NCBI RefSeq assembly: GCF_046105845.1
Contig: NZ_CP151004.1
Source: Escherichia coli
GTDB taxonomy: Bacteria; Pseudomonadota; Gammaproteobacteria; Enterobacterales; Enterobacteriaceae
Reading direction: 5' to 3' (one strand)
DNA: 64,000 bases
Below are positions 27 through 53,546 of the stretch, one piece after another. The notes beneath the pieces are model-generated. The model saw only the letters and a program-made list of their open reading frames with translations, was not told where the DNA came from and searched no databases. A program made the position numbers and the translations under genes. Every line of letters starts with the position of its first letter. Within the stretch, counting starts at the first letter, position 1.

Positions 27-2261
27 ATGGTTGCGGTAAGAAGTGCACATATCAATAAGGCTGGTGAATTTGATCCGGAAAAATGGATCGCAAGTCTGGG
101 TATTACCAGCCAGAAGTCGTGTGAGTGCTTAGCCGAAACCTGGGCGTATTGTCTGCAACAGACGCAGGGGCATCCGGATGCCAGTCTGTTATTGTGGCGT
201 GGTGTTGAGATGGTGGAGATCCTCTCGACATTAAGTATGGACATTGACACGCTGCGGGCGGCGCTGCTGTTCCCTCTGGCCGATGCCAACGTAGTCAGCG
301 AAGATGTGCTGCGTGAGTGCGTCGGTAAGTCGGTCGTTAACCTTATTCACGGCGTGCGTGATATGGCGGCGATCCGCCAGCTGAAAGCGACGCATACCGA
401 TTCTGTTTCCTCCGAACAGGTCGATAACGTTCGCCGGATGTTATTGGCGATGGTCGATGATTTTCGCTGCGTGGTCATCAAACTGGCGGAGCGTATTGCT
501 CATCTGCGCGAAGTAAAAGACGCGCCGGAAGATGAACGCGTACTGGCGGCAAAAGAGTGCACCAATATCTACGCGCCGTTGGCGAACCGTCTTGGGATTG
601 GACAACTGAAATGGGAGCTGGAAGATTACTGCTTCCGTTATCTCCACCCGACCGAATACAAACGCATCGCAAAACTGCTGCATGAACGCCGTCTCGACCG
701 CGAACACTATATCGAAGAGTTTGTCGGCCATCTGCGCGCTGAGATGAAAGCTGAAGGCGTTAAAGCTGAAGTGTATGGTCGTCCGAAACACATCTACAGC
801 ATCTGGCGCAAAATGCAGAAAAAGAACCTCGCCTTCGATGAGCTGTTTGATGTGCGTGCGGTACGTATTGTCGCCGAGCGTTTACAGGATTGTTATGCCG
901 CACTGGGGATAGTGCACACTCACTATCGCCACCTGCCGGATGAGTTTGACGATTACGTCGCTAACCCGAAACCAAACGGTTATCAGTCTATTCATACCGT
1001 GGTTCTGGGACCAGGTGGCAAAACCGTAGAGATCCAAATCCGCACCAAACAGATGCATGAAGATGCAGAGTTGGGTGTTGCTGCGCACTGGAAATATAAA
1101 GAAGGCGCGGCAGCTGGCGGCGCACGTTCGGGACATGAAGACCGAATTGCCTGGCTGCGTAAACTGATTGCGTGGCAGGAAGAGATGGCTGATTCCGGCG
1201 AAATGCTCGACGAAGTACGCAGCCAGGTCTTTGACGACCGGGTGTACGTCTTTACGCCGAAAGGTGACGTCGTTGATTTGCCTGCGGGATCAACGCCGCT
1301 GGACTTCGCTTACCACATCCACAGTGATGTCGGACACCGCTGCATCGGGGCAAAAATAGGCGGGCGCATTGTGCCGTTCACCTACCAGCTGCAGATGGGC
1401 GACCAGATTGAAATTATTACCCAGAAACAGCCGAACCCCAGCCGTGACTGGTTAAACCCAAACCTCGGTTACGTCACAACCAGCCGTGGGCGTTCGAAAA
1501 TTCACGCCTGGTTCCGTAAACAGGACCGTGACAAAAACATTCTGGCTGGGCGGCAAATCCTTGACGACGAGCTGGAACATCTGGGGATCAGCCTGAAAGA
1601 AGCAGAAAAACATCTGCTGCCGCGTTACAACTTCAATGATGTCGACGAGTTGCTGGCGGCAATTGGTGGCGGGGATATCCGTCTCAATCAGATGGTGAAC
1701 TTCCTGCAATCGCAATTTAATAAGCCGAGTGCCGAAGAGCAGGACGCCGCCGCGCTGAAACAGCTTCAGCAAAAAAGCTATACGCCGCAAAACCGCAGTA
1801 AAGATAACGGTCGTGTGGTGGTTGAAGGTGTCGGTAACCTGATGCACCACATCGCGCGCTGCTGCCAGCCGATTCCTGGAGATGAGATTGTCGGCTTCAT
1901 TACCCAGGGACGCGGTATTTCAGTACACCGCGCCGATTGCGAACAACTGGCGGAACTGCGCTCCCATGCGCCAGAACGTATTGTTGATGCGGTATGGGGC
2001 GAGAGCTACTCCGCCGGATATTCGCTGGTGGTCCGCGTGGTGGCTAATGATCGTAGTGGGTTGTTACGTGATATCACGACCATTCTCGCCAACGAGAAGG
2101 TGAACGTACTTGGCGTTGCCAGCCGTAGCGACACCAAACAGCAACTGGCGACCATCGACATGACCATTGAGATTTACAACCTGCAAGTGCTGGGTCGCGT
2201 GCTGGGTAAACTTAACCAGGTGCCGGATGTTATCGACGCGCGTCGGTTGCACGGGAGTTAG
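27..2261 (+). CDS. relA: GTP pyrophosphokinase, (p)ppGpp synthetase I
   Basis: 744-aa ORF; N-terminus MVAVRSAHINKAGEFDPEKW and length match RelA as recalled; followed by mazEF as in K-12. Confidence 0.95.
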   Translation: MVAVRSAHINKAGEFDPEKWIASLGITSQKSCECLAETWAYCLQQTQGHPDASLLLWRGVEMVEILSTLSMDIDTLRAALLFPLADANVVSEDVLRECVGKSVVNLIHGVRDMAAIRQLKATHTDSVSSEQVDNVRRMLLAMVDDFRCVVIKLAERIAHLREVKDAPEDERVLAAKECTNIYAPLANRLGIGQLKWELEDYCFRYLHPTEYKRIAKLLHERRLDREHYIEEFVGHLRAEMKAEGVKAEVYGRPKHIYSIWRKMQKKNLAFDELFDVRAVRIVAERLQDCYAALGIVHTHYRHLPDEFDDYVANPKPNGYQSIHTVVLGPGGKTVEIQIRTKQMHEDAELGVAAHWKYKEGAAAGGARSGHEDRIAWLRKLIAWQEEMADSGEMLDEVRSQVFDDRVYVFTPKGDVVDLPAGSTPLDFAYHIHSDVGHRCIGAKIGGRIVPFTYQLQMGDQIEIITQKQPNPSRDWLNPNLGYVTTSRGRSKIHAWFRKQDRDKNILAGRQILDDELEHLGISLKEAEKHLLPRYNFNDVDELLAAIGGGDIRLNQMVNFLQSQFNKPSAEEQDAAALKQLQQKSYTPQNRSKDNGRVVVEGVGNLMHHIARCCQPIPGDEIVGFITQGRGISVHRADCEQLAELRSHAPERIVDAVWGESYSAGYSLVVRVVANDRSGLLRDITTILANEKVNVLGVASRSDTKQQLATIDMTIEIYNLQVLGRVLGKLNQVPDVIDARRLHGS

Positions 2262-2274
2262 GCCGAAATTAGCT

Positions 2275-2320
2275 CGTATCTACAATGTAGATTGATATAT
2301 ACTGTATCTACATATGATAG
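2275..2320 (+). promoter_or_regulatory. mazEF promoter/operator with palindromes
   Basis: Perfect palindrome ATCTACA-A-TGTAGAT at 2278-2292 and related GTATCTACATATGATAG at about 2304-2320, 20-60 nt upstream of mazE start; matches the known MazE-MazF autoregulatory operator. Confidence 0.55.
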
Positions 2321-2338
2321 CGGTTTGAGGAAAGGGTT

Positions 2339-2587
2339 ATGATCCACAGTAGCGTAAAGCGTTGGGGAAATTCACCGGCGGTGCGGATCCCGGCTACGTT
2401 AATGCAGGCGCTCAATCTGAATATTGATGATGAAGTGAAGATTGACCTGGTGGATGGCAAATTAATTATTGAGCCAGTACGTAAAGAGCCCGTATTTACG
2501 CTTGCTGAACTGGTCAACGACATCACGCCGGAAAACCTCCACGAGAATATCGACTGGGGGGAGCCGAAAGATAAGGAAGTCTGGTAA
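2339..2587 (+). CDS. mazE: antitoxin MazE
   Basis: 82-aa [28 protein letters not shown]..., AbrB/MazE-like; 1-nt overlap with mazF. Confidence 0.93.
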
Positions 2588-2922
2588 TGGTAAGCCGATA
2601 CGTACCCGATATGGGCGATCTGATTTGGGTTGATTTTGACCCGACAAAAGGTAGCGAGCAAGCCGGACATCGTCCGGCTGTTGTCCTGAGTCCGTTCATG
2701 TACAACAACAAAACAGGTATGTGTCTGTGTGTTCCTTGTACAACGCAATCAAAAGGATATCCGTTCGAAGTTGTTTTATCCGGTCAGGAACGTGATGGCG
2801 TAGCGTTAGCTGATCAGGTAAAAAGTATCGCCTGGCGGGCAAGAGGAGCAACGAAGAAAGGAACGGTTGCCCCAGAGGAATTACAGCTCATTAAAGCCAA
2901 AATTAACGTGCTGATTGGGTAG
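2587..2922 (+). CDS. mazF: toxin MazF, ACA-specific endoribonuclease
   Basis: 111-aa [40 protein letters not shown]..., PemK/MazF family. Confidence 0.93.
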   Translation: MVSRYVPDMGDLIWVDFDPTKGSEQAGHRPAVVLSPFMYNNKTGMCLCVPCTTQSKGYPFEVVLSGQERDGVALADQVKSIAWRARGATKKGTVAPEELQLIKAKINVLIG

Positions 2923-2993
2923 GTGTTACTAACTCACTTCTATTCTGGTCACAGGTTTCCACCTGACAGACCCGCAATTTTCAGGACATTCTA

Positions 2994-3785
2994 ATGAATC
3001 AAATCGACCGTTTGCTCACTATTATGCAGCGCCTGCGCGATCCGGAAAATGGCTGCCCGTGGGATAAAGAGCAGACATTTGCCACCATTGCGCCTTACAC
3101 CCTTGAAGAAACCTACGAGGTGCTGGACGCCATCGCCCGTGAAGATTTTGACGATCTTCGCGGTGAACTGGGCGATCTGCTGTTCCAGGTGGTGTTTTAC
3201 GCACAAATGGCCCAGGAAGAAGGGCGCTTTGACTTTAATGATATTTGCGCCGCGATCAGCGATAAATTAGAACGTCGCCATCCGCATGTTTTTGCTGACA
3301 GTTCTGCCGAAAACAGTAGTGAAGTGCTTGCCCGTTGGGAGCAAATCAAAACCGAAGAGCGCGCGCAGAAAGCGCAGCATTCGGCGCTGGACGATATTCC
3401 TCGTAGTTTACCGGCTTTAATGCGTGCGCAAAAAATCCAGAAACGTTGCGCCAACGTTGGTTTTGACTGGACGACGCTTGGTCCGGTAGTCGATAAAGTC
3501 TACGAAGAGATCGACGAGGTGATGTACGAGGCACGGCAGGCTGTTATCGACCAGGCTAAACTGGAGGAGGAAATGGGCGACCTGCTGTTTGCCACGGTCA
3601 ATCTGGCTCGTCATTTAGGGACAAAAGCGGAAATCGCATTGCAAAAAGCGAACGAAAAATTCGAGCGTCGTTTTCGCGAAGTGGAGCGTATTGTTGCCGC
3701 GCGTGGACTGGAAATGACAGGTGTTGACCTCGAAACAATGGAAGAAGTCTGGCAACAGGTAAAACGGCAGGAAATTGATCTCTAA
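2994..3785 (+). CDS. mazG: nucleoside triphosphate pyrophosphohydrolase MazG
   Basis: 263-aa ORF, tandem MazG domains, position downstream of mazEF. Confidence 0.9.
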   Translation: MNQIDRLLTIMQRLRDPENGCPWDKEQTFATIAPYTLEETYEVLDAIAREDFDDLRGELGDLLFQVVFYAQMAQEEGRFDFNDICAAISDKLERRHPHVFADSSAENSSEVLARWEQIKTEERAQKAQHSALDDIPRSLPALMRAQKIQKRCANVGFDWTTLGPVVDKVYEEIDEVMYEARQAVIDQAKLEEEMGDLLFATVNLARHLGTKAEIALQKANEKFERRFREVERIVAARGLEMTGVDLETMEEVWQQVKRQEIDL

Positions 3786-3997
3786 GGGAATTACGTGGTC
3801 AAGCGCGATTTGTGTCATTTTTTAAATGACAAGCGCTTGATTTGCGTCAAAAACATTTACCCCAAAGGGGCTATTTTCTCACTCCTGATTTCAATAGTGC
3901 GCTGGCGAAGAGGAGGGATAATGAAAGTTTGTGGCACAGGTCATGTTCGGGTATACTGCTTTCCCGTCTTGGTTATTCCATCGTCTTTTCAACCTAA

Positions 3998-5650
<1,653 letters not shown>

Positions 5651-5669
5651 GTAAAAAAGTTAGAACGGC

Positions 5670-5700
5670 AACGCGTACCCTGGGTACGCGTTGTTTGTCT
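5670..5700 (+). terminator. putative intrinsic terminator after pyrG
   Basis: Hairpin AACGCGTACCC/GGGTACGCGTT followed by T-rich tract, about 20 nt after pyrG stop. Confidence 0.45.
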
Positions 5701-5722
5701 GGAGTTTCAGTTTAACTAGTGA

Positions 5723-7036
<1,314 letters not shown>

Positions 7037-9271: not shown

Positions 9272-10643
9272 AGAGTTCCCCGCGCCAGCGGGGATAAACC
9301 GTTGTCCTGCTGAACCAAGTAAGCCACTGACAAGAGTTCCCCGCGCCAGCGGGGATAAACCGCATTATATCCTGTGCGTCGTTCATTTATTTACGAGTTC
9401 CCCGCGCCAGCGGGGATAAACCGGCCGCCGCATGGCAAAACAAACATCGGGGTACGAGTTCCCCGCGCCAGCGGGGATAAACCGGAACGGCGGCTATACG
9501 GATTCGACAGGTCAGCGAGTTCCCCGCGCCAGCGGGGATAAACCGGATTGAATGCAGATGGTTCAATGCTCGCATTCGAGTTCCCCGCGCCAGCGGGGAT
9601 AAACCGCCACGCGTGCTTTGAGTGGATGGTGTCGCTTGGAGTTCCCCGCGCCAGCGGGGATAAACCGATACATTATTAAGCGGGCAATTTTTCCAGTTTG
9701 AGTTCCCCGCGCCAGCGGGGATAAACCGAACGGCACGGCCTGCCGCCACGTCCCGCAGCTGAGTTCCCCGCGCCAGCGGGGATAAACCGGGGCCGTGTTT
9801 TCTAACGGATTCGCACATTGCGAGTTCCCCGCGCCAGCGGGGATAAACCGCAGCAGTTCAATACTGAAATCAACATGCCGATGAGTTCCCCGCGCCAGCG
9901 GGGATAAACCGCGCGGTGGGGTTTCATTCGCATCAATTCAAGGGAGTTCCCCGCGCCAGCGGGGATAAACCGGCGGTGAGTGAGAAAATCAGGACGGCTG
10001 CGAGGAGTTCCCCGCGCCAGCGGGGATAAACCGCGCCAAATATGCTGGTGGACTTCTACGCCGATGAGTTCCCCGCGCCAGCGGGGATAAACCGCTATCG
10101 ACGGTCAAGAAAATCCACCGGAAGAAGAGTTCCCCGCGCCAGCGGGGATAAACCGGCAGCAATATATTTGACATAATAGATAACCCGGAGTTCCCCGCGC
10201 CAGCGGGGATAAACCGACGCCAGGGGAGATATAACGCGCCTGTTATGGGAGTTCCCCGCGCCAGCGGGGATAAACCGGTCTTAACTAAAAGATGACCATT
10301 CAGTCGCAGGAGTTCCCCGCGCCAGCGGGGATAAACCGCGGCCCATAATATTAATATAATCCACATGAGGGAGTTCCCCGCGCCAGCGGGGATAAACCGC
10401 GCCGGAAATCATCGTTCTGTAATTGTCTAGCGAGTTCCCCGCGCCAGCGGGGATAAACCGCCCTGTTTGTTATTCCCATTATACGTATAAGAGAGTTCCC
10501 CGCGCCAGCGGGGATAAACCGCTTCTGGCTGGAGGTGGAGAAACGGAGGCAATGAGTTCCCCGCGTTAGCGGGGATAAACCGGATTTAGAGAGCCAGACG
10601 TTGGTCAGTTATTCGAGTTCCCCGCGTCAGCGGGGATAACCAT
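9272..10643 (+). CRISPR. orphan type I-E CRISPR array, 23 repeats / 22 spacers
   Basis: 29-bp repeat GAGTTCCCCGCGCCAGCGGGGATAAACCG at 61-bp period (first interval 62); last two repeats degenerate (GCGTTAGCGGGG; GCGTCAGCGGGGATAACCAT); no cas genes adjacent. Confidence 0.97.
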
Positions 10644-35596: not shown

Positions 35597-37089
35597 GAGT
35601 TCCCCGCGCCAGCGGGGATAAACCGTCCGATCCGAAAAAACGGGTAGTCGCCTACGAGAGTTCCCCGCGCCAGCGGGGATAAACCGCCCAGTGGCGAAGG
35701 GCAACGTAAGCATAAAACGAGTTCCCCGCGCCAGCGGGGATAAACCGGGGTAACACCGTGGCAGCAAGTCGATCCGCTGGAGTTCCCCGCGCCAGCGGGG
35801 ATAAACCTGATGCGCGCCGACTTGAATCACTGCGCATGGCGAGTTCCCCGCGCCAGCGGGGATAAACCGATGGACCGTGCCGCTTTTCGCCACCTGACGC
35901 CGAGTTCCCCGCGCCAGCGGGGATAAACCGTGGCTCCGGTCGGGGCCCGCCGCTTGCGGTGGGAGTTCCCCGCGCCAGCGGGGATAAACCGGTGCGTGAA
36001 TTATCTATCCAGGCAAAAGTAACGAGTTCCCCGCGCCAGCGGGGATAAACCGCATATTTTTCAGGATATCTATAAATGGGCGGGGAGTTCCCCGCGCCAG
36101 CGGGGATAAACCGCTCATCAAAATAATCGGCATTGTCAGAAATCCGAGTTCCCCGCGCCAGCGGGGATAAACCGTGCACTGGCTGACTACGCCGCAGCAC
36201 ATAAATGAGTTCCCCGCGCCAGCGGGGATAAACCGATAATTGATGCGATCTGGTCCACTACAGTGGCGAGTTCCCCGCGCCAGCGGGGATAAACCGTAGT
36301 TGCTGTTTAGGCTGTGTTGTGGTTACCAGAGTTCCCCGCGCCAGCGGGGATAAACCGACCTGCTCGCGATGCGTCTGCCGCTGGAACCCGAGTTCCCCGC
36401 GCCAGCGGGGATAAACCGTTGCGCGATCCATCGCTCAGCTTTGATCATGAGAGTTCCCCGCGCCAGCGGGGATAAACCGCGCAGCGCCGACGAACTGGAC
36501 GGCGCTATAAAGAGTTCCCCGCGCCAGCGGGGATAAACCGATGTGGCAGAAATTGATGGAGCGGATGTGCGAGAGTTCCCCGCGCCAGCGGGGATAAACC
36601 GATTTAGATACGGCACACAGGAATGCGCTGGATGAGTTCCCCGCGCCAGCGGGGATAAACCGCGGCTGGCTGTAATAATGCACGGCAGTGTGACGAGTTC
36701 CCCGCGCCAGCGGGGATAAACCGTGAATAATAAGGCGCTGACGGGCGATATTACGGAGTTCCCCGCGCCAGCGGGGATAAACCGGAACAACCTGAACGGA
36801 TGCCACCTTTTCACCTGAGTTCCCCGCGCCAGCGGGGATAAACCAACCGTCAGCATAGACCCATCTAGTCAGATTCTGTGTTCCCCGCGCCAGCGGGGAT
36901 AAACCGGCCCATTCCCCCCATACCGGCGGCAAGTTTAAGTGTTCCCCGCGCCAGCGGGGATAAACCGATTCCGTCAAATTTATCACTCAACGCCAGTTCG
37001 TGTTCCCCGCGCCAGCGGGGATAAACCGGGCGCACTGGATGCGATGATGGATATCACTTAGAATTCCCCGCCCCTGCGGTAGAACTCGC
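35597..37089 (+). CRISPR. type I-E CRISPR array, 25 repeats / 24 spacers
   Basis: 29-bp repeat GAGTTCCCCGCGCCAGCGGGGATAAACCG at strict 61-bp period; last three full repeats begin GTGTTCCCC; terminal repeat degenerate (GAATTCCCCGCCCCTGCGGTAGAACTCGC). Confidence 0.98.
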
Positions 37090-45977: not shown

Positions 45978-47117
45978 ATGAGCGCGGGAAGCCCAAAATT
46001 CACCGTTCGCCGCATTGCGGCTTTGTCACTGGTTTCGCTATGGCTGGCAGGCTGTTCTGACACTTCAAATCCACCGGCCCCGGTAAGCTCCGTTAATGGC
46101 AATGCGCCTGCAAATACCAATTCTGGTATGTTGATTACGCCGCCGCCGAAAATGGGGACGACGTCTACAGCTCAGCAACCGCAAATTCAGCCGGTACAGC
46201 AGCCACAAATTCAGGCAACTCAACAACCGCAAATCCAGCCGGTGCAGCCAGTAGCTCAGCAGCCGGTACAGATGGAAAACGGACGCATCGTCTACAACCG
46301 TCAGTATGGGAACATTCCGAAAGGCAGTTATAGCGGCAGTACCTATACCGTGAAAAAAGGCGACACACTTTTCTATATCGCCTGGATTACTGGCAACGAT
46401 TTCCGTGACCTTGCTCAGCGCAACAATATTCAGGCACCATACGCGCTGAACGTCGGTCAGACCTTACAGGTGGGTAATGCTTCCGGTACGCCAATCACTG
46501 GCGGAAATGCCATTACCCAGGCCGACGCAGCAGAGCAAGGAGTTGTGATCAAGCCTGCACAAAATTCCACCGTTGCTGTTGCGTCGCAACCGACAATTAC
46601 GTATTCTGAGTCTTCGGGTGAACAGAGTGCTAACAAAATGTTGCCGAACAACAAGCCAACTGCGACCACGGTCACAGCGCCTGTAACGGTACCAACAGCA
46701 AGCACAACCGAGCCGACTGTCAGCAGTACATCAACCAGTACGCCTATCTCCACCTGGCGTTGGCCGACTGAGGGCAAAGTGATCGAAACCTTTGGCGCTT
46801 CTGAGGGGGGCAACAAGGGGATTGATATCGCAGGCAGCAAAGGACAGGCAATTATCGCGACCGCAGATGGCCGCGTTGTTTATGCCGGTAACGCGCTGCG
46901 CGGCTACGGTAATCTGATTATCATCAAACATAATGATGATTACCTGAGTGCCTACGCCCATAACGACACAATGCTGGTCCGGGAACAACAAGAAGTGAAG
47001 GCGGGGCAAAAAATAGCAACCATGGGTAGCACCGGAACCAGTTCAACACGCTTGCATTTTGAAATTCGTTACAAGGGGAAATCCGTAAACCCGCTGCGTT
47101 ATTTGCCGCAGCGATAA
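45978..47117 (+). CDS. nlpD: lipoprotein NlpD (LysM + M23 peptidase-like)
   Basis: 379-aa ORF with lipobox (LAGCS), QQPQIQ tandem repeats, LysM and C-terminal M23 domain; in K-12 the main rpoS promoter lies inside this gene (not verified here). Confidence 0.93.
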
Positions 47118-47179: not shown

Positions 47180-48172
47180 ATGAGTCAGAATACGCTGAAA
47201 GTTCATGATTTAAATGAAGATGCGGAATTTGATGAGAACGGAGTTGAGGTTTTTGACGAAAAGGCCTTAGTAGAAGAGGAACCCAGTGATAACGATTTGG
47301 CCGAAGAGGAACTGTTATCGCAGGGAGCCACACAGCGTGTGTTGGACGCGACTCAGCTTTACCTTGGTGAGATTGGTTATTCACCACTGTTAACGGCCGA
47401 AGAAGAAGTTTATTTTGCGCGTCGCGCACTGCGTGGAGATGTTGCCTCCCGCCGCCGGATGATCGAGAGTAACTTGCGTCTGGTGGTAAAAATTGCCCGC
47501 CGTTATGGCAATCGTGGTCTGGCGTTGCTGGACCTGATCGAAGAGGGCAACCTGGGGCTGATCCGCGCGGTAGAGAAGTTTGACCCGGAACGTGGTTTCC
47601 GCTTCTCAACATACGCAACCTGGTGGATTCGCCAGACGATCGAACGGGCGATTATGAACCAAACCCGTACTATTCGTTTGCCGATTCACATCGTAAAGGA
47701 GCTGAACGTTTACCTGCGAACCGCACGCGAGTTGTCCCATAAACTGGACCACGAACCAAGTGCGGAAGAGATCGCAGAGCAACTGGATAAGCCAGTTGAT
47801 GACGTCAGCCGTATGCTTCGTCTTAACGAGCGCATTACCTCGGTAGACACCCCGCTGGGTGGTGATTCCGAAAAAGCGTTGCTGGACATCCTGGCCGATG
47901 AAAAAGAGAACGGTCCGGAAGATACCACGCAAGATGACGATATGAAGCAGAGCATCGTCAAATGGCTGTTCGAGCTGAACGCCAAACAGCGTGAAGTACT
48001 GGCACGTCGATTCGGTTTGCTGGGGTACGAAGCGGCAACACTGGAAGATGTAGGTCGTGAAATTGGCCTCACCCGTGAACGTGTTCGCCAGATTCAGGTT
48101 GAAGGCCTGCGCCGTTTGCGCGAAATCCTGCAAACGCAGGGGCTGAATATCGAAGCGCTGTTCCGCGAGTAA
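47180..48172 (+). CDS. rpoS: RNA polymerase sigma factor sigma-S
   Basis: 330 aa from [14 protein letters not shown]...; sigma-70 family regions 2-4. Confidence 0.96.
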
Positions 48173-48187
48173 GTAAGCATCTGTCAG

Positions 48188-48226
48188 AAAGGCCAGTCTC
48201 AAGCGAGGCTGGCCTTTTTCTTTTGT
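48188..48226 (+). terminator. intrinsic terminator after rpoS
   Basis: AAAGGCCAGTCTC-AAGC-GAGGCTGGCCTTTTTCTTTTG hairpin plus T-run. Confidence 0.65.
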
Positions 48227-48292
48227 TTGGGAAGTCGGTGTGTTTTGTCGCCTGGATAAGACTCGTCAGCGTCCTACCCGGCAATCAGCATC

Positions 48293-48637
48293 CTATTTGC
48301 TCATCATCTTGCGCACCAACTGCATAAACAGCTCCTTCTCTTCTGCACTCAAACGCCCCAAAAATTCCTCATCCACACTGTCACCAATCGGTATCGCCGC
48401 AGCAAGTACCTTTTCTCCTTCGGCAGTCAGCCAGACAAAGCGACGCCGCTTGTCAGCGGCGTCATGTTCACGTCTGACTAAGCCACGATTTTCCATTCTT
48501 GCCAACATTTCTGCCAGCGTTGCTTTGGTGCTGACTGCTGCTTCTATCAGTGCCACCTGTTCGATACCAGGCTTATCAGCAATGGCGCGCATCACCGCGT
48601 ACTGTGGTTTGGTCAGGTCAGGTAACTCGACCCCGGC
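48293..48637 (-). pseudogene. 5'-truncated MarR/SlyA-family regulator remnant
   Basis: Frame encodes ...LPDLTKPQYAVMRAIADKPGIEQVALIEAAV...RMENRGLVRR... (winged-helix MarR core) but is closed by an in-frame TGA at 48638-48640; about 25 N-terminal residues and any promoter missing. Confidence 0.55.
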
Positions 48638-48793
48638 TCAAGCCCGGCCGGGATCACCGACAAGCTGATTATCGACGCCACCACGCCTGTCGCCCCGGAC
48701 AACCGTGGTCACTACAGCCAGCCCGTGGTGGATTTGCCGGAAACCAAAGCCTGGGCTGAAAAACTGACCGCTATGCTGGCCGCACGTAAATAA
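48626..48793 (+). pseudogene. 3' remnant of a UbiD-family decarboxylase gene
   Basis: 55 in-frame codons (...GITDKLIIDATTPVAPDNRGHYSQPVVDLPETKAWAEKLTAMLAARK*) preceded by an in-frame TAA and no start; sits 10 nt upstream of the 78-aa subunit-D-like ORF. Confidence 0.45.
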
Positions 48794-48803
48794 GGAGAAC
48801 AAG

Positions 48804-49040
48804 ATGATTTGTCCACGTTGTGCCGATGAACAGATTGAAGTGATGGCGAAATCGCCGGTAAAAGATGTCTGGACGGTCTACCAGTGCCAGCATTGCCTCT
48901 ATACCTGGCGCGATACCGAACCGCTACGCCGCACCAGCCGCGAACATTATCCCGAAGCGTTCCGCATGACGCAGAAAGATATTGATGACGCGCCGATGGT
49001 GCCGAGCATCCCGCCGCTGCTGGCGGCAGATAAGCGTTAA
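48804..49040 (+). CDS. small zinc-ribbon protein resembling subunit D of UbiD-type phenolic acid decarboxylases (orphaned)
   Basis: 78-aa ORF MICPRCADEQIEVMAKSPVKDVWTVYQCQHCLYTWRD... with CxxC...CxxC; RBS AAGGAG 7 nt upstream. Confidence 0.55.
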   Translation: MICPRCADEQIEVMAKSPVKDVWTVYQCQHCLYTWRDTEPLRRTSREHYPEAFRMTQKDIDDAPMVPSIPPLLAADKR

Positions 49041-49080
49041 TAAAAAGTGCCGGGTAGTGGCTTTGCTTTACCCGGCCTCA

Positions 49081-49737
49081 TTACTTTATTTTATAAAATG
49101 ACAGCCGCCCGCTTTTCGGCGATCCGGTATCAATATAAATCTGGTTAGCGAACGTCTGAATGTTATCAAACATCATATGTCCAAATATAAAATAATCAGC
49201 GCCGTTTATTTGTTGTAACTCGCCATTAAGCGATTTCTGCACACGATCAACAGGCCAGAGTAGTTCTCTCTCCGCTATTTCTTTGTCAAAGAGATATTCA
49301 TTCCCCGGATAATCTGCATGTGCGATGACATATTTTATTATGTCGTTAGTGATTTCAATAATATGTGGAAGGCGATGAAATTTCAGCAACAGATTTATTG
49401 CTTCTTGTTGTTCCGTCTCATTTAATTCAAAGAACCAGTCGCCGCCGCTGGCAAGCCACATATTTCCATCGCCAGTTTCGAATGCATCAAGCGCCATCGC
49501 TTCATGGTTGCCTTTAACCGACGTAAACCAGGGTTGGTTTAGCAGGTGCAGCACGTTAAGACTCTCCGGCCCACGATCAATATTATCGCCGACAGAAATA
49601 AGTAAGTCGGTTTCAGGGCAAAAAGAGAGTTGATGTAAGCGGGATTGTAATAATTGATAGTCACCATGAATATCACCAACGGCCCATATATGGCGATAGT
49701 GATGGGTATTGATTTTTTGATAGCGTGTAGATGGCAT
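49081..49737 (-). CDS. pphB: serine/threonine protein phosphatase 2
   Basis: 218-aa ORF with metallophosphatase motifs (GDIHG, GDNIDRG, GNHE). Confidence 0.88.
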   Translation of the reverse strand: MPSTRYQKINTHHYRHIWAVGDIHGDYQLLQSRLHQLSFCPETDLLISVGDNIDRGPESLNVLHLLNQPWFTSVKGNHEAMALDAFETGDGNMWLASGGDWFFELNETEQQEAINLLLKFHRLPHIIEITNDIIKYVIAHADYPGNEYLFDKEIAERELLWPVDRVQKSLNGELQQINGADYFIFGHMMFDNIQTFANQIYIDTGSPKSGRLSFYKIK

Positions 49738-49842: not shown

Positions 49843-52404
49843 TTACACCAGACTCTTCAACCGATAAATCCACTCCAGCGCCTGACGCGGAGTCAGTGAA
49901 TCCGGGTCGAGGTTTTCCAGTGCCTCGACCGCAGGCGAAGTTTCTTCTGGTACGGGCAGCAAAGACATTTGCGTACCATCCACTTGCGTAGCGGCGGCGT
50001 TCGGCGAAATGCTTTCCAGCTCACGCAGTTTTTGCCGTGCGCGCTTAATCACCTCTTTTGGCACGCCCGCCAGAGCAGCAACCGCCAGGCCGTAGCTTTT
50101 GCTCGCCGCGCCATCCTGCACGCTATGCATAAAGGCAATGGTGTCGCCGTGCTCCAGTGCATCGAGATGCACGTTGGCGACGCCTTCCATTTTCTCCGGT
50201 AACTGGGTCAGCTCGAAATAGTGGGTAGCAAACAGCGTCAATGCCTTAATCTTATTCGCCAGATTTTCTGCGCACGCCCACGCCAGCGACAGACCATCGT
50301 AAGTGGACGTTCCACGCCCGATCTCATCCATTAACACCAGACTGTATTCGGTGGCGTTATGTAAAATATTGGCGGTTTCAGTCATCTCCACCATAAAGGT
50401 TGAGCGCCCGGAAGCCAGGTCATCTGCCGCGCCTACGCGGGTAAAGATGCGATCGATAGGTCCAATCTCGACTTTTTGTGCCGGTACATAGCTGCCGATG
50501 TAGGCCATCAGCGCAATCAGTGCGGTCTGGCGCATATAGGTACTTTTACCGCCCATATTCGGACCGGTAATGATCAACATGCGACGCTGCGGCGACAGGT
50601 TCAGCGGGTTGGCGATAAATGGCTCGTTCAGTACCTGTTCAACCACCGGATGGCGGCCTTCGGTGATGCGAATACCCGGTTTATCAATGAAGGTCGGGCA
50701 GGTGTAGTTCAGCGTATAGGCCCGTTCCGCCAGGTTCACCAGCACGTCGAGTTCCGCCAGCGCGCTCGCGCTCTGTTGCAACGCTTCCAGATGCGGCAAC
50801 AGCAGGTCGAACAACTCTTCATAAAGCTGTTTTTCCAGTGCTAGTGCTTTGCCTTTTGAAGTGAGAACTTTGTCTTCGTACTCTTTTAGCTCTGGAATAA
50901 TGTAGCGCTCGGCGTTTTTCAGCGTCTGGCGACGCATGTAATTGATGGGTGCCAGATGGCTTTGTCCACGGCTGATCTGAATGTAATAACCATGAACCGC
51001 GTTAAAGCCGACTTTCAGCGTGTCCAGGCCAGTACGTTCACGCTCGCGGACTTCCAGACGCTCCAGATAATCGGTCGCGCCGTCAGCCAGCGCGCGCCAC
51101 TCATCCAGCTCTTCGTTATAGCCCGATGCGATAACACCACCGTCGCGTACCAGCACTGGCGGTGTGTCGATGATTGCTCGCTCCAGCAGATCGCGCAGCT
51201 CGGCAAACTCGCCCATCTTCTCACGTAGCGCCTGTACCGGAGCGCTATCGACAGTTTCTAACTGCGCACGCAGCTCCGGCAGTTGCTGGAAAGCGTGACG
51301 CATACGGGCCAGATCGCGTGGGCGAGCAGTTCGTAAAGCCAGACGCGCCAGAATACGTTCCAGGTCGCCGACCTGACGCAGTACCGGCTGCAGCTCGGCG
51401 GTGAAATCCTGCAATGCGCCAATAGTTTGCTGGCGCTCAAGCAACACGCGGGTATCGCGCACTGGCATATGCAGCCAGCGTTTCAGCATACGACTACCCA
51501 TCGGCGTTACAGTGCAGTCGAGCACTGAAGCCAGCGTGTTTTCCGCACCGCCCGCCAGGTTCTGAGTAATTTCCAGGTTACGACGTGTCGCGGCATCCAT
51601 AATGATGCTGTCCTGCTCACGTTCCATGGTGATAGAACGAATATGTGGCAGGGTCGTACGTTGGGTATCTTTCGCATACTGCAACAGACAACCGGCAGCA
51701 CAAAGTCCGCGCGGCGCGTTCTCGACGCCAAAACCGACCAGATCGCGGGTGCCAAATTGCAGATTCAACTGCTGGCGCGCGGTGTCGATTTCAAACTCCC
51801 ACAGCGGGCGACGGCGCAGGCCGCGACGGCCTTCAATTAACGACATTTCAGCAAAATCTTCTGCATACAGCAGTTCCGCAGGATTAGTGCGTTGCAGTTC
51901 TGCCGCCATCGTTTCCCGGTCAGCCGGTTCGCTCAGGCGAAAACGACCGGAACTGATATCCAGCGTCGCGTAGCCGAAACCTTTGCTGTCCTGCCAGATA
52001 GCCGCCAGCAGGTTGTCCTGACGCTCCTGCAACAGGGCTTCATCGCTGATGGTGCCTGGCGTAACGATACGCACAACTTTGCGCTCAACCGGACCTTTGC
52101 TGGTCGCCGGATCGCCAATTTGTTCGCAGATGGCAACGGACTCGCCCTGATTCACCAGTTTGGCGAGGTAGTTTTCCACCGCATGGTAGGGAATCCCCGC
52201 CATCGGGATCGGCTCTCCCGCCGAAGCACCGCGTTTGGTCAGTGAAATATCCAGCAGTTGCGATGCGCGTTTTGCGTCGTCATAAAACAGTTCATAAAAA
52301 TCACCCATCCGGTAAAACAGCAGGATCTCGGGATGCTGGGCTTTCAGCTTGAGATACTGCTGCATCATGGGCGTATGGGCGTCGAAATTTTCTATTGCAC
52401 TCAT
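49843..52404 (-). CDS. mutS: DNA mismatch repair protein MutS
   Basis: 853-aa [43 protein letters not shown]...; Walker [10 protein letters not shown]. Confidence 0.97.
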
Positions 52405-53073: not shown

Positions 53074-53502
53074 TTACGCTTTGGTGGCAATCAGGATGGC
53101 TGATGCTTTGATCAATGCAATAACGCGTGAGCCAGTGGTGAGTTTCATTTCATCCTGACTTTCATTTGTTACCACTGCCACAATTTCAAAACCCGCATCC
53201 GTTTTGATATGGACAGTGGCGTTCACTGCGCCTTCGGTGATTGTCGACACGCTGCCAGCAAACTGGTTGCGAGCAGAGAATTTCAGTCCACAGTCTTCCG
53301 TTGCCAGCGTTACCCACGGGGCTTTAATCAGGGCAATCGCTTCTTTCCCTTTCGCCAGACCCAGAGCCTGCTGGCTGCTGTGAGTCACAATTGCCACCAG
53401 CTTTGCACCACCTGCCAGCGTCAGTTCTACTTCGTCATTCACCGCGCCCATTGCTACTGCGCTAACTGTTCCGGTTAATTGATTTCTTGCTGAAACTGCC
53501 AT
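53074..53502 (-). CDS. stand-alone di-Mop (tandem TOBE) molybdate/oxyanion-binding-like protein
   Basis: About 142 aa from MAVSARNQLTGTVSAV...; two TOBE-like repeats (SARNQLTG...; SARNQFAG...); AAGGAGG RBS 4 nt before ATG; alternative start 15 nt upstream. Confidence 0.65.
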   Translation of the reverse strand: MAVSARNQLTGTVSAVAMGAVNDEVELTLAGGAKLVAIVTHSSQQALGLAKGKEAIALIKAPWVTLATEDCGLKFSARNQFAGSVSTITEGAVNATVHIKTDAGFEIVAVVTNESQDEMKLTTGSRVIALIKASAILIATKA

Positions 53503-53546
53503 ACTGCCTCCTTTCATTGAATGTTGATCGAGTATAACCACATCTG

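Follow-up and report, generated by a model that had tools for sequence, protein, structure and literature searches.

What is the short spacer between rpoS and pphB in this Escherichia coli chromosome, how did it arise, and does anything in it still work? In the window, the whole 64,000-nucleotide stretch of DNA that was analysed, the gene order is nlpD, rpoS, a spacer of ~0.86-0.9 kb, pphB and mutS (Table 1). The mutS-rpoS interval is a documented mosaic and a recombination-prone hotspot (Ewers et al. 2014, PMC4209514); the initial annotation of this DNA, which interpreted the spacer as a deletion scar, had likewise called it a known polymorphic hotspot. We consider it very likely that the 0.86-kb rpoS-pphB spacer (48219-49081) is the inactive remnant of an accessory MarR-vdcBCD cassette, left behind by one 2,074-bp deletion from one AACTCG repeat to another.

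Table 1 Features of the nlpD-mutS segment, in window coordinates
Feature	Position	Strand	Remarks
nlpD	45978-47117		
rpoS	47180-48172		330 aa, intact
rpoS intrinsic terminator hairpin	48186-48219	plus	terminator scan; U-run after the stem; fold of -24.5 kcal/mol (z = -3.5)
MarR-family (slyA-like/kpdR) pseudogene remnant	48293-48628	minus	codons 25-135 plus stop
Deletion junction, sole remaining AACTCG copy	48624-48629		
vdcC 3' remnant (UbiD-family decarboxylase subunit C)	48626-48793	plus	codons 421-475 (55 codons) plus stop
vdcD	48804-49040	plus	intact, 78 aa; zinc-ribbon subunit D
Hairpin between convergent vdcD and pphB, bidirectional-terminator-like	49049-49078		fold
pphB	49081-49737	minus	218 aa, intact; right-hand boundary gene; NCBIfam PRK09968, 459.5 bits
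mutS	49843-52404	minus	

The layout of the intact cassette was read from annotated O157-type and other complete E. coli genomes, for example strain 2009C-3554, whose rpoS-pphB locus (L002) serves as reference below; its segment corresponding to the deletion is identical to that of O157:H7 strains. A MarR gene of 408 bp on the minus strand is followed by a 146-bp spacer, vdcB (594 bp), vdcC (1,428 bp) and vdcD (237 bp). The cassette, also known as slyA-like/pad1/yclC or kpdR-kpdBCD, encodes a prFMN-dependent, non-oxidative decarboxylase of the 4-hydroxybenzoate/vanillate type, in which VdcB is UbiX-like and VdcC is UbiD-like. In the 146-bp spacer, vdcB is preceded by a promoter-like site and by TGTTCGTATACGAACA, a perfect palindrome of 16 bp. 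Located at L002 3118-3133, this palindrome adjoins a -10-like element and shares its last base. It is likely the operator for the MarR-family regulator, and the spacer would be the divergent promoter/operator expected for a repressor of the MarR type.

Alignment of the scar to intact cassettes, including those of O157:H7-type genomes, had been proposed in the initial annotation, and it maps the breakpoints to the base. By BLAST, window positions 48100-48629 align to L002 2404-2932 and positions 48624-49200 to L002 5001-5577, the two blocks overlapping by 6 bases. These bases are the direct repeat AACTCG, which is present at both breakpoints of intact cassettes (L002 2927-2932 and 5001-5006) and of which the scar has kept one copy. 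The two gene fragments had been reported to abut at about 48626-48640, and the precise junction is this hexanucleotide. The loss amounts to 2,074 bp, that is, 2,068 bp between the repeats and one repeat copy, and comprises MarR codons 1-24, the 146-bp divergent spacer, all of vdcB and codons 1-420 of the 475 in vdcC (88%). The two-block alignment therefore bears out the earlier proposal that one deletion had removed the divergent promoter region, a ubiX-like gene and most of a ubiD-like gene. The pattern is not a product of chance: thousands of genomes with intact cassettes match the flanks at 96-99% identity.

The two-block alignment to L002 leaves no room for foreign or mobile-element sequence at the junction. 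A search for mobile-element ends or long repeats as the cause of the deletion returned only chance-level matches of 10-20 nt, and neither extended homology nor structure was found around the two breakpoints in the intact cassette. The deleted DNA has not been relocated within the 64-kb window, where blastn and tblastn detect neither vdcB nor the missing part of vdcC. The opposite polarity, with the short form ancestral and the cassette an insertion, was rejected, given that each of the two flanking genes is truncated in frame.

The event was a single 2,074-bp deletion between the AACTCG repeats, mediated by this microhomology; as its mechanism we infer slipped-strand or illegitimate recombination. 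At the joint, the minus-strand regulator gene, cut at codon 25, meets plus-strand vdcC at codon 421. Both divergent promoters and the likely operator palindrome went with the deleted DNA, as did vdcB, the gene for the prFMN synthase, and the portion of vdcC that encodes the catalytic body. The survivors are two gene fragments that cannot be translated and a complete vdcD, placed behind the rpoS terminator and devoid of a recognisable promoter.

Of 5,426 complete E. coli genomes, 2,381-2,410 (~44%) contain the 2,068 bp that are deleted here. The identical scar junction occurs in six of the 5,426 (~0.1%), namely AST215, KE55, VCSW5, VCSW7, 19KM1831 and the O158:H23 strain CFIAFB20140388, with human, dog and soil sources spread over Japan, the USA, Hong Kong, Switzerland and Canada. 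PGAP annotates all six with two pseudogene fragments, each flagged 'incomplete; missing N-terminus', beside an intact subunit D gene. The junction was also found in one metagenome contig, and the exact junction has no match among the GTDB species-representative genomes. That the junction reflects an assembly collapse or mis-join and not the real chromosome can practically be dismissed, given its recurrence in six independently sequenced complete genomes and the metagenome contig; moreover, a 6-bp repeat is much too short for collapse by an assembler. The scar is a rare allele, of an ordinary kind, in a long-known polymorphic interval, and is already annotated publicly as pseudogenes. Its description adds a precisely mapped rare allele to the mosaic rpoS-mutS interval, and in this sense matters little.

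The left-hand fragment is a regulator gene without its beginning. The minus-strand frame 48293-48637 matches the Pfam MarR family PF01047 (E 5.7e-12; 45.8 bits, cut-off 24.6), whose winged-helix domain is complete and covers residues 8-64 of the remnant. Full-length MarR-family NCBIfam models match the remnant only from profile position ~25-37, and in tblastn the intact 135-aa orthologue places its residues 25-135 on 48628-48293 with 95.5% identity. The initial annotation had the MarR/SlyA frame lacking its first roughly 25 codons; the truncation stands, and the exact loss is 24 codons. The in-frame TGA at 48638-48640 upstream of the remnant frame, also described there, is read directly from the DNA. 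Residues 1-24 being deleted, the first possible start is the GTG at 48595, which opens a 100-aa ORF and corresponds to V36, or else M37. An intact alternative N-terminus, which would have spoken against a truncated gene, does not exist. In agreement, PGAP marks the MarR fragment in the six genomes as 'incomplete; missing N-terminus'.

The completeness of the winged-helix domain, together with a frame that is open in all scar carriers, raises the question of whether a 99-100-aa MarR protein is made from GTG 48595 or ATG 48592 and still regulates something. We regard this as extremely unlikely, since 35-36 residues at the N-terminus have been lost along with the operator and the native promoter. 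The missing N-terminal residues of the MarR fold include the first dimerisation helix. The minus-strand DNA upstream is the antisense of vdcD and lies behind the pphB terminator hairpin, the target operon is gone, and PGAP calls the gene a pseudogene.

Two hairpins delimit the scar. That of the rpoS terminator insulates it from rpoS read-through. The second, between vdcD and pphB, folds with -18.4 kcal/mol on the plus strand and -19.9 kcal/mol on the minus strand (z = -2.8 and -3.5, respectively); its minus-strand stem is followed by CUUUUUAUU, and it keeps pphB transcription from running into the MarR remnant. Searched against Rfam, the scar gives only sub-threshold matches, located on the rpoS terminator. 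The stretch 48214-48300, from the rpoS terminator to the 3' end of the MarR gene, is hypervariable: at least five allele classes, differing at 20 or more of ~85 positions, are distributed as a patchwork among scar-bearing and intact-cassette genomes. The stretch has the look of a boundary of recombination. As to rpoS itself, codon 33 of the full-length gene is GAG (Glu), neither the Gln of K-12 nor the amber variant known at this position.

The right-hand fragment had been described as a start-less, 55-codon C-terminal piece of a UbiD-family decarboxylase, and this identification holds. With E 3.3e-15 it matches the NCBIfam VdcC model NF041204 over profile positions 418-466 of 467, and tblastn aligns it at 100% identity with intact VdcC, residues 421-475. 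Its score of 55.5 bits falls far below the model's cut-off of 650, the level expected of a full-length VdcC with its prFMN-binding and catalytic domains. The remnant has no start codon, and no ORF of at least 30 aa is listed in its frame. For vdcB, the UbiX-like prFMN synthase gene, neither blastn nor tblastn gives a match within the 64-kb window. As subunit B is absent and subunit C is cut to 55 of 475 residues, the decarboxylase enzyme cannot exist at the scar. Automated annotation nevertheless shows an intact "decarboxylase subunit D" here, which is not to be taken as decarboxylase capacity.

This subunit D gene is the one member of the cassette that remains whole. The 78-aa zinc-ribbon protein matches the NCBIfam equivalog NF041205 over the entire profile (positions 1-70 of 70; 121.2 bits, cut-off 30; E 1.2e-35) and the solved zinc-ribbon ShdD/VdcD structure PDB 7AE4 (E 3.5e-11), and it is 97.5% identical to O157-type VdcD in tblastn. 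Homology searches thus uphold the MarR, VdcC and VdcD identities alike. Cysteines C3, C6, C28 and C31 form two CxxC knuckles (residues 3-6 and 28-31) that align to 7AE4; in ShVdcD, the same four cysteines constitute a zinc ribbon with a structural role (PMC8379154). A ribosome-binding site, AAGGAG, is located 7 nt upstream of the start codon, and all eight scar carriers (the window, the six genomes and the metagenome contig) have an intact vdcD, as does an independent decay form mediated by IS91. No full-length VdcC neighbours it: upstream there are merely codons 421-475, and the 64-kb window contains no other vdcC. A sigma-70 consensus scan, which weak or non-sigma-70 promoters may escape, detected no promoter-like site on the plus strand between 48220 and 48803; vdcD could be transcribed from a promoter of such a kind.

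VdcC is inactive without VdcD, which is a tightly bound allosteric subunit of the VdcC hexamer (Marshall et al. 2021, PMC8379154). Non-cognate VdcD can activate a foreign VdcC in part (PMC8379154), and in engineering studies D subunits had negligible or deleterious effects on non-cognate decarboxylases (PMC5779730). The scar locus is almost certainly non-functional and the cassette dead. Enzyme and cofactor synthase are both missing, no promoter is evident and VdcD has no demonstrated role away from VdcC; the locus most likely does nothing. The gene vdcD is best read, from its sequence and setting, as an orphan that has not yet degraded.

A different explanation would be that the orphan is kept for a function, either in modulating another UbiD-family enzyme (UbiD) or as an independent small zinc-ribbon protein. 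The ORF, the ribosome-binding site and the four zinc-binding cysteines have stayed intact in every carrier and in the IS91 decay form, which could be a sign of retention; however, at the present divergence 237 bp have no power as a test, and an ORF of this length is expected to remain open for long by chance. The partial activation of a foreign VdcC by non-cognate VdcD (PMC8379154) also speaks for such a role. Yet the gene is preceded by the rpoS terminator and has no promoter-like site, its sole demonstrated role is within the VdcCD complex (PMC8379154), and D subunits without their cognate C were of negligible or deleterious effect (PMC5779730). In addition, two scar carriers already have the substitution P40L. 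Function of the orphan is accordingly very unlikely. We know of no VdcC-independent function of VdcD.

The alleles around the junction bear on whether the scar has one origin or several. All six E. coli scars carry 48679T. This allele was considered as a scar-private marker and rejected, as 190 of the 196 genomes that carry it among the 5,426 are without the scar junction; it marks the haplotype under the six scars. Several other carriers have scar-only changes in the vdcC fragment, namely 48671C (I to L), 48704A (R to S) and a P to Q exchange, and P40L in VdcD is confined to two other scar carriers. These vdcC-fragment changes and P40L are found in none of five intact cassettes that were translated, and at the nucleotide level the same alleles occur in none of ten cassettes without this deletion (nine with full-length vdcC, one disrupted by IS91). 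The shared scar-only alleles show that at least six carriers descend from a common ancestor and have recombined since, and the amino-acid changes also show relaxed constraint.

The window itself has neither 48679T nor any scar-only allele such as 48671C or 48704A. In the outer left flank it shares 99.3% identity with the intact-cassette strains MEW and 43905, against 93-95% with the other scars, and scar haplotypes in general are mosaic, with differences as near as 5-50 bp to the junction on either side. Each of these observations would fit a recurrent hotspot, a preferred site of illegitimate recombination in place of one inherited allele, at which the AACTCG-to-AACTCG deletion arose more than once and the scar of the window has an origin apart from the scar in the six RefSeq genomes. 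Chance reuse of exactly this pair is improbable, however: the intact cassette offers 1,142 maximal direct-repeat pairs of at least 6 bp, of which 342 are longer than the AACTCG pair, and neither structure nor extended homology singles out the breakpoints. From 48389 to the junction, moreover, the window carries the alleles of most other scars and not those of MEW and 43905, which fits the import of a scar-bearing tract, and derived scar-only alleles are common to scar sub-haplotypes. Conversion of flanks up to the boundary of heterology is to be expected in a recombination hotspot (PMC4209514). We hence regard a separate origin of the window scar as unlikely.

Because 1,142 repeat pairs were available and no extended homology exists at the breakpoints, we favour one old deletion that would have moved between backgrounds while its flanks were converted by homologous recombination. 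That the AACTCG pair is a recurrent deletion site with an independent scar in the window, and/or that the orphan VdcD is kept for a VdcC-independent role, appears to us quite unlikely. If either were true, the locus would be a small case in which a phenolic-acid decarboxylase was lost in parallel, possibly under selection, while its activator subunit was retained.

Some features elsewhere in the window and in neighbouring loci were recorded in passing. The window contains two CRISPR arrays, at 9455-10522 and 36268-36784, with the type I-E repeat GAGTTCCCCGCGCCAGCGGGGATAAACCG. Its first 25 kb are 96.5% identical to E. coli and its first 10 kb are 95.5% identical to the best-matching E. coli genome; these values are low because the CRISPR spacers at 9-10.4 kb differ. 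A non-coli Escherichia lineage, which the 96.5% over 25 kb might suggest, was rejected, as the DNA outside the CRISPR spacers is 97.5-99.5% identical to sequenced E. coli strains. A 155-aa ORF on the minus strand at 53074-53541, between ygbA and fhlA, occupies a position annotated elsewhere as 'TOBE domain-containing protein' (c3292-type molybdenum-pterin-binding gene). It is missing from the scar-bearing metagenome contig, which has 48 bp in place of 514 bp, and is another known presence/absence polymorphism of the interval. In strain N3 (NZ_CP031609.1, locus 4159-4692), an extra 534-bp hypothetical gene lies between pphB and mutS; it is absent from the window and from the other loci examined.

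How does the scar relate to the known types of the rpoS-mutS region? The K-12 genes ygbN-ygbI had been reported as absent, and none of them is found anywhere in the 64-kb window. Of the region 48100-49200, K-12-type genomes match only 48100-48218 and 49082-49200. Save for a few point substitutions, the window has O157-type sequence at the rpoS-MarR and vdcD-pphB joints and in the terminator hairpin, and O157-type genomes never carry ygb genes at the vdcD-pphB joint. As the joint matches these always ygb-free genomes, the absence of ygbN-ygbI lies outside this scar, and the relevant ancestor is pattern I (EDL933-type) and not K-12. The initial annotation was right that the spacer is a scar, but the absence of the ygb genes, which it had noted, is no part of the scar; it is a separate, older polymorphism. 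One genome, NZ_CP026085.1, combines MarR-vdcBCD with ygbN-ygbI between rpoS and pphB. It is labelled 'DH5alpha', and since the K-12 derivatives S17-1 and HB101 are, unlike this genome, without the cassette, the strain label is probably wrong.

Pattern I, the EDL933/O157:H7 type of the o454-nlpD region, comprises slyA-like, pad1, yclC and a small ORF beside pphB. The window agrees with it in having a slyA-like sequence by rpoS, yclC/vdcC by pphB-mutS and no ygbN-ygbI (o454 etc.), with both markers partial, and differs from it by the 2,074 bp missing inside the cassette. The yclC typing-primer site of Ewers et al. (PMC4209514), GACAACCGTGGTCACTACA, is kept at 48698-48716. PCR typing with mutS-yclC and slyA-nlpD therefore probably scores scar strains as complete pattern I and misses the deletion.

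Compared with hydroxyarylic acid decarboxylase operons such as VdcBCD, BsdBCD, KpdBCD, EcdBCD and ShdBCD, the scar shares an authentic VdcC C-terminus and a full member of the D family, but B is absent, C is reduced to 55 of 475 residues and the activator subunit alone is left. The same cassette has decayed in other ways in other E. coli strains. In strain 7_33_80A (NZ_CP074815.1, locus 903-3502), an IS91-family transposase and a hypothetical gene replace roughly the same genes next to a truncated MarR gene, followed by an 85-codon 3' fragment of vdcC, an intact vdcD and then ygbN. Strain BEC1-S17-ESBL-09 (NZ_AP022298.1, locus 2957-6170) has a copy of IS200C between rpoS and the MarR gene, and its vdcC is annotated as frameshifted. 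The remnants in 7_33_80A are of the kind seen in the window: part of the MarR gene, the 3' end of vdcC and the whole of vdcD. The breakpoints differ, however, and decay in these two strains is IS91-associated or due to a frameshift, whereas the window displays a clean microhomology deletion without a mobile element. Evidently, the optional hydroxyarylic-acid decarboxylase cassette can be dispensed with; it decays repeatedly and along different routes, namely microhomology deletion, IS91 and frameshift.
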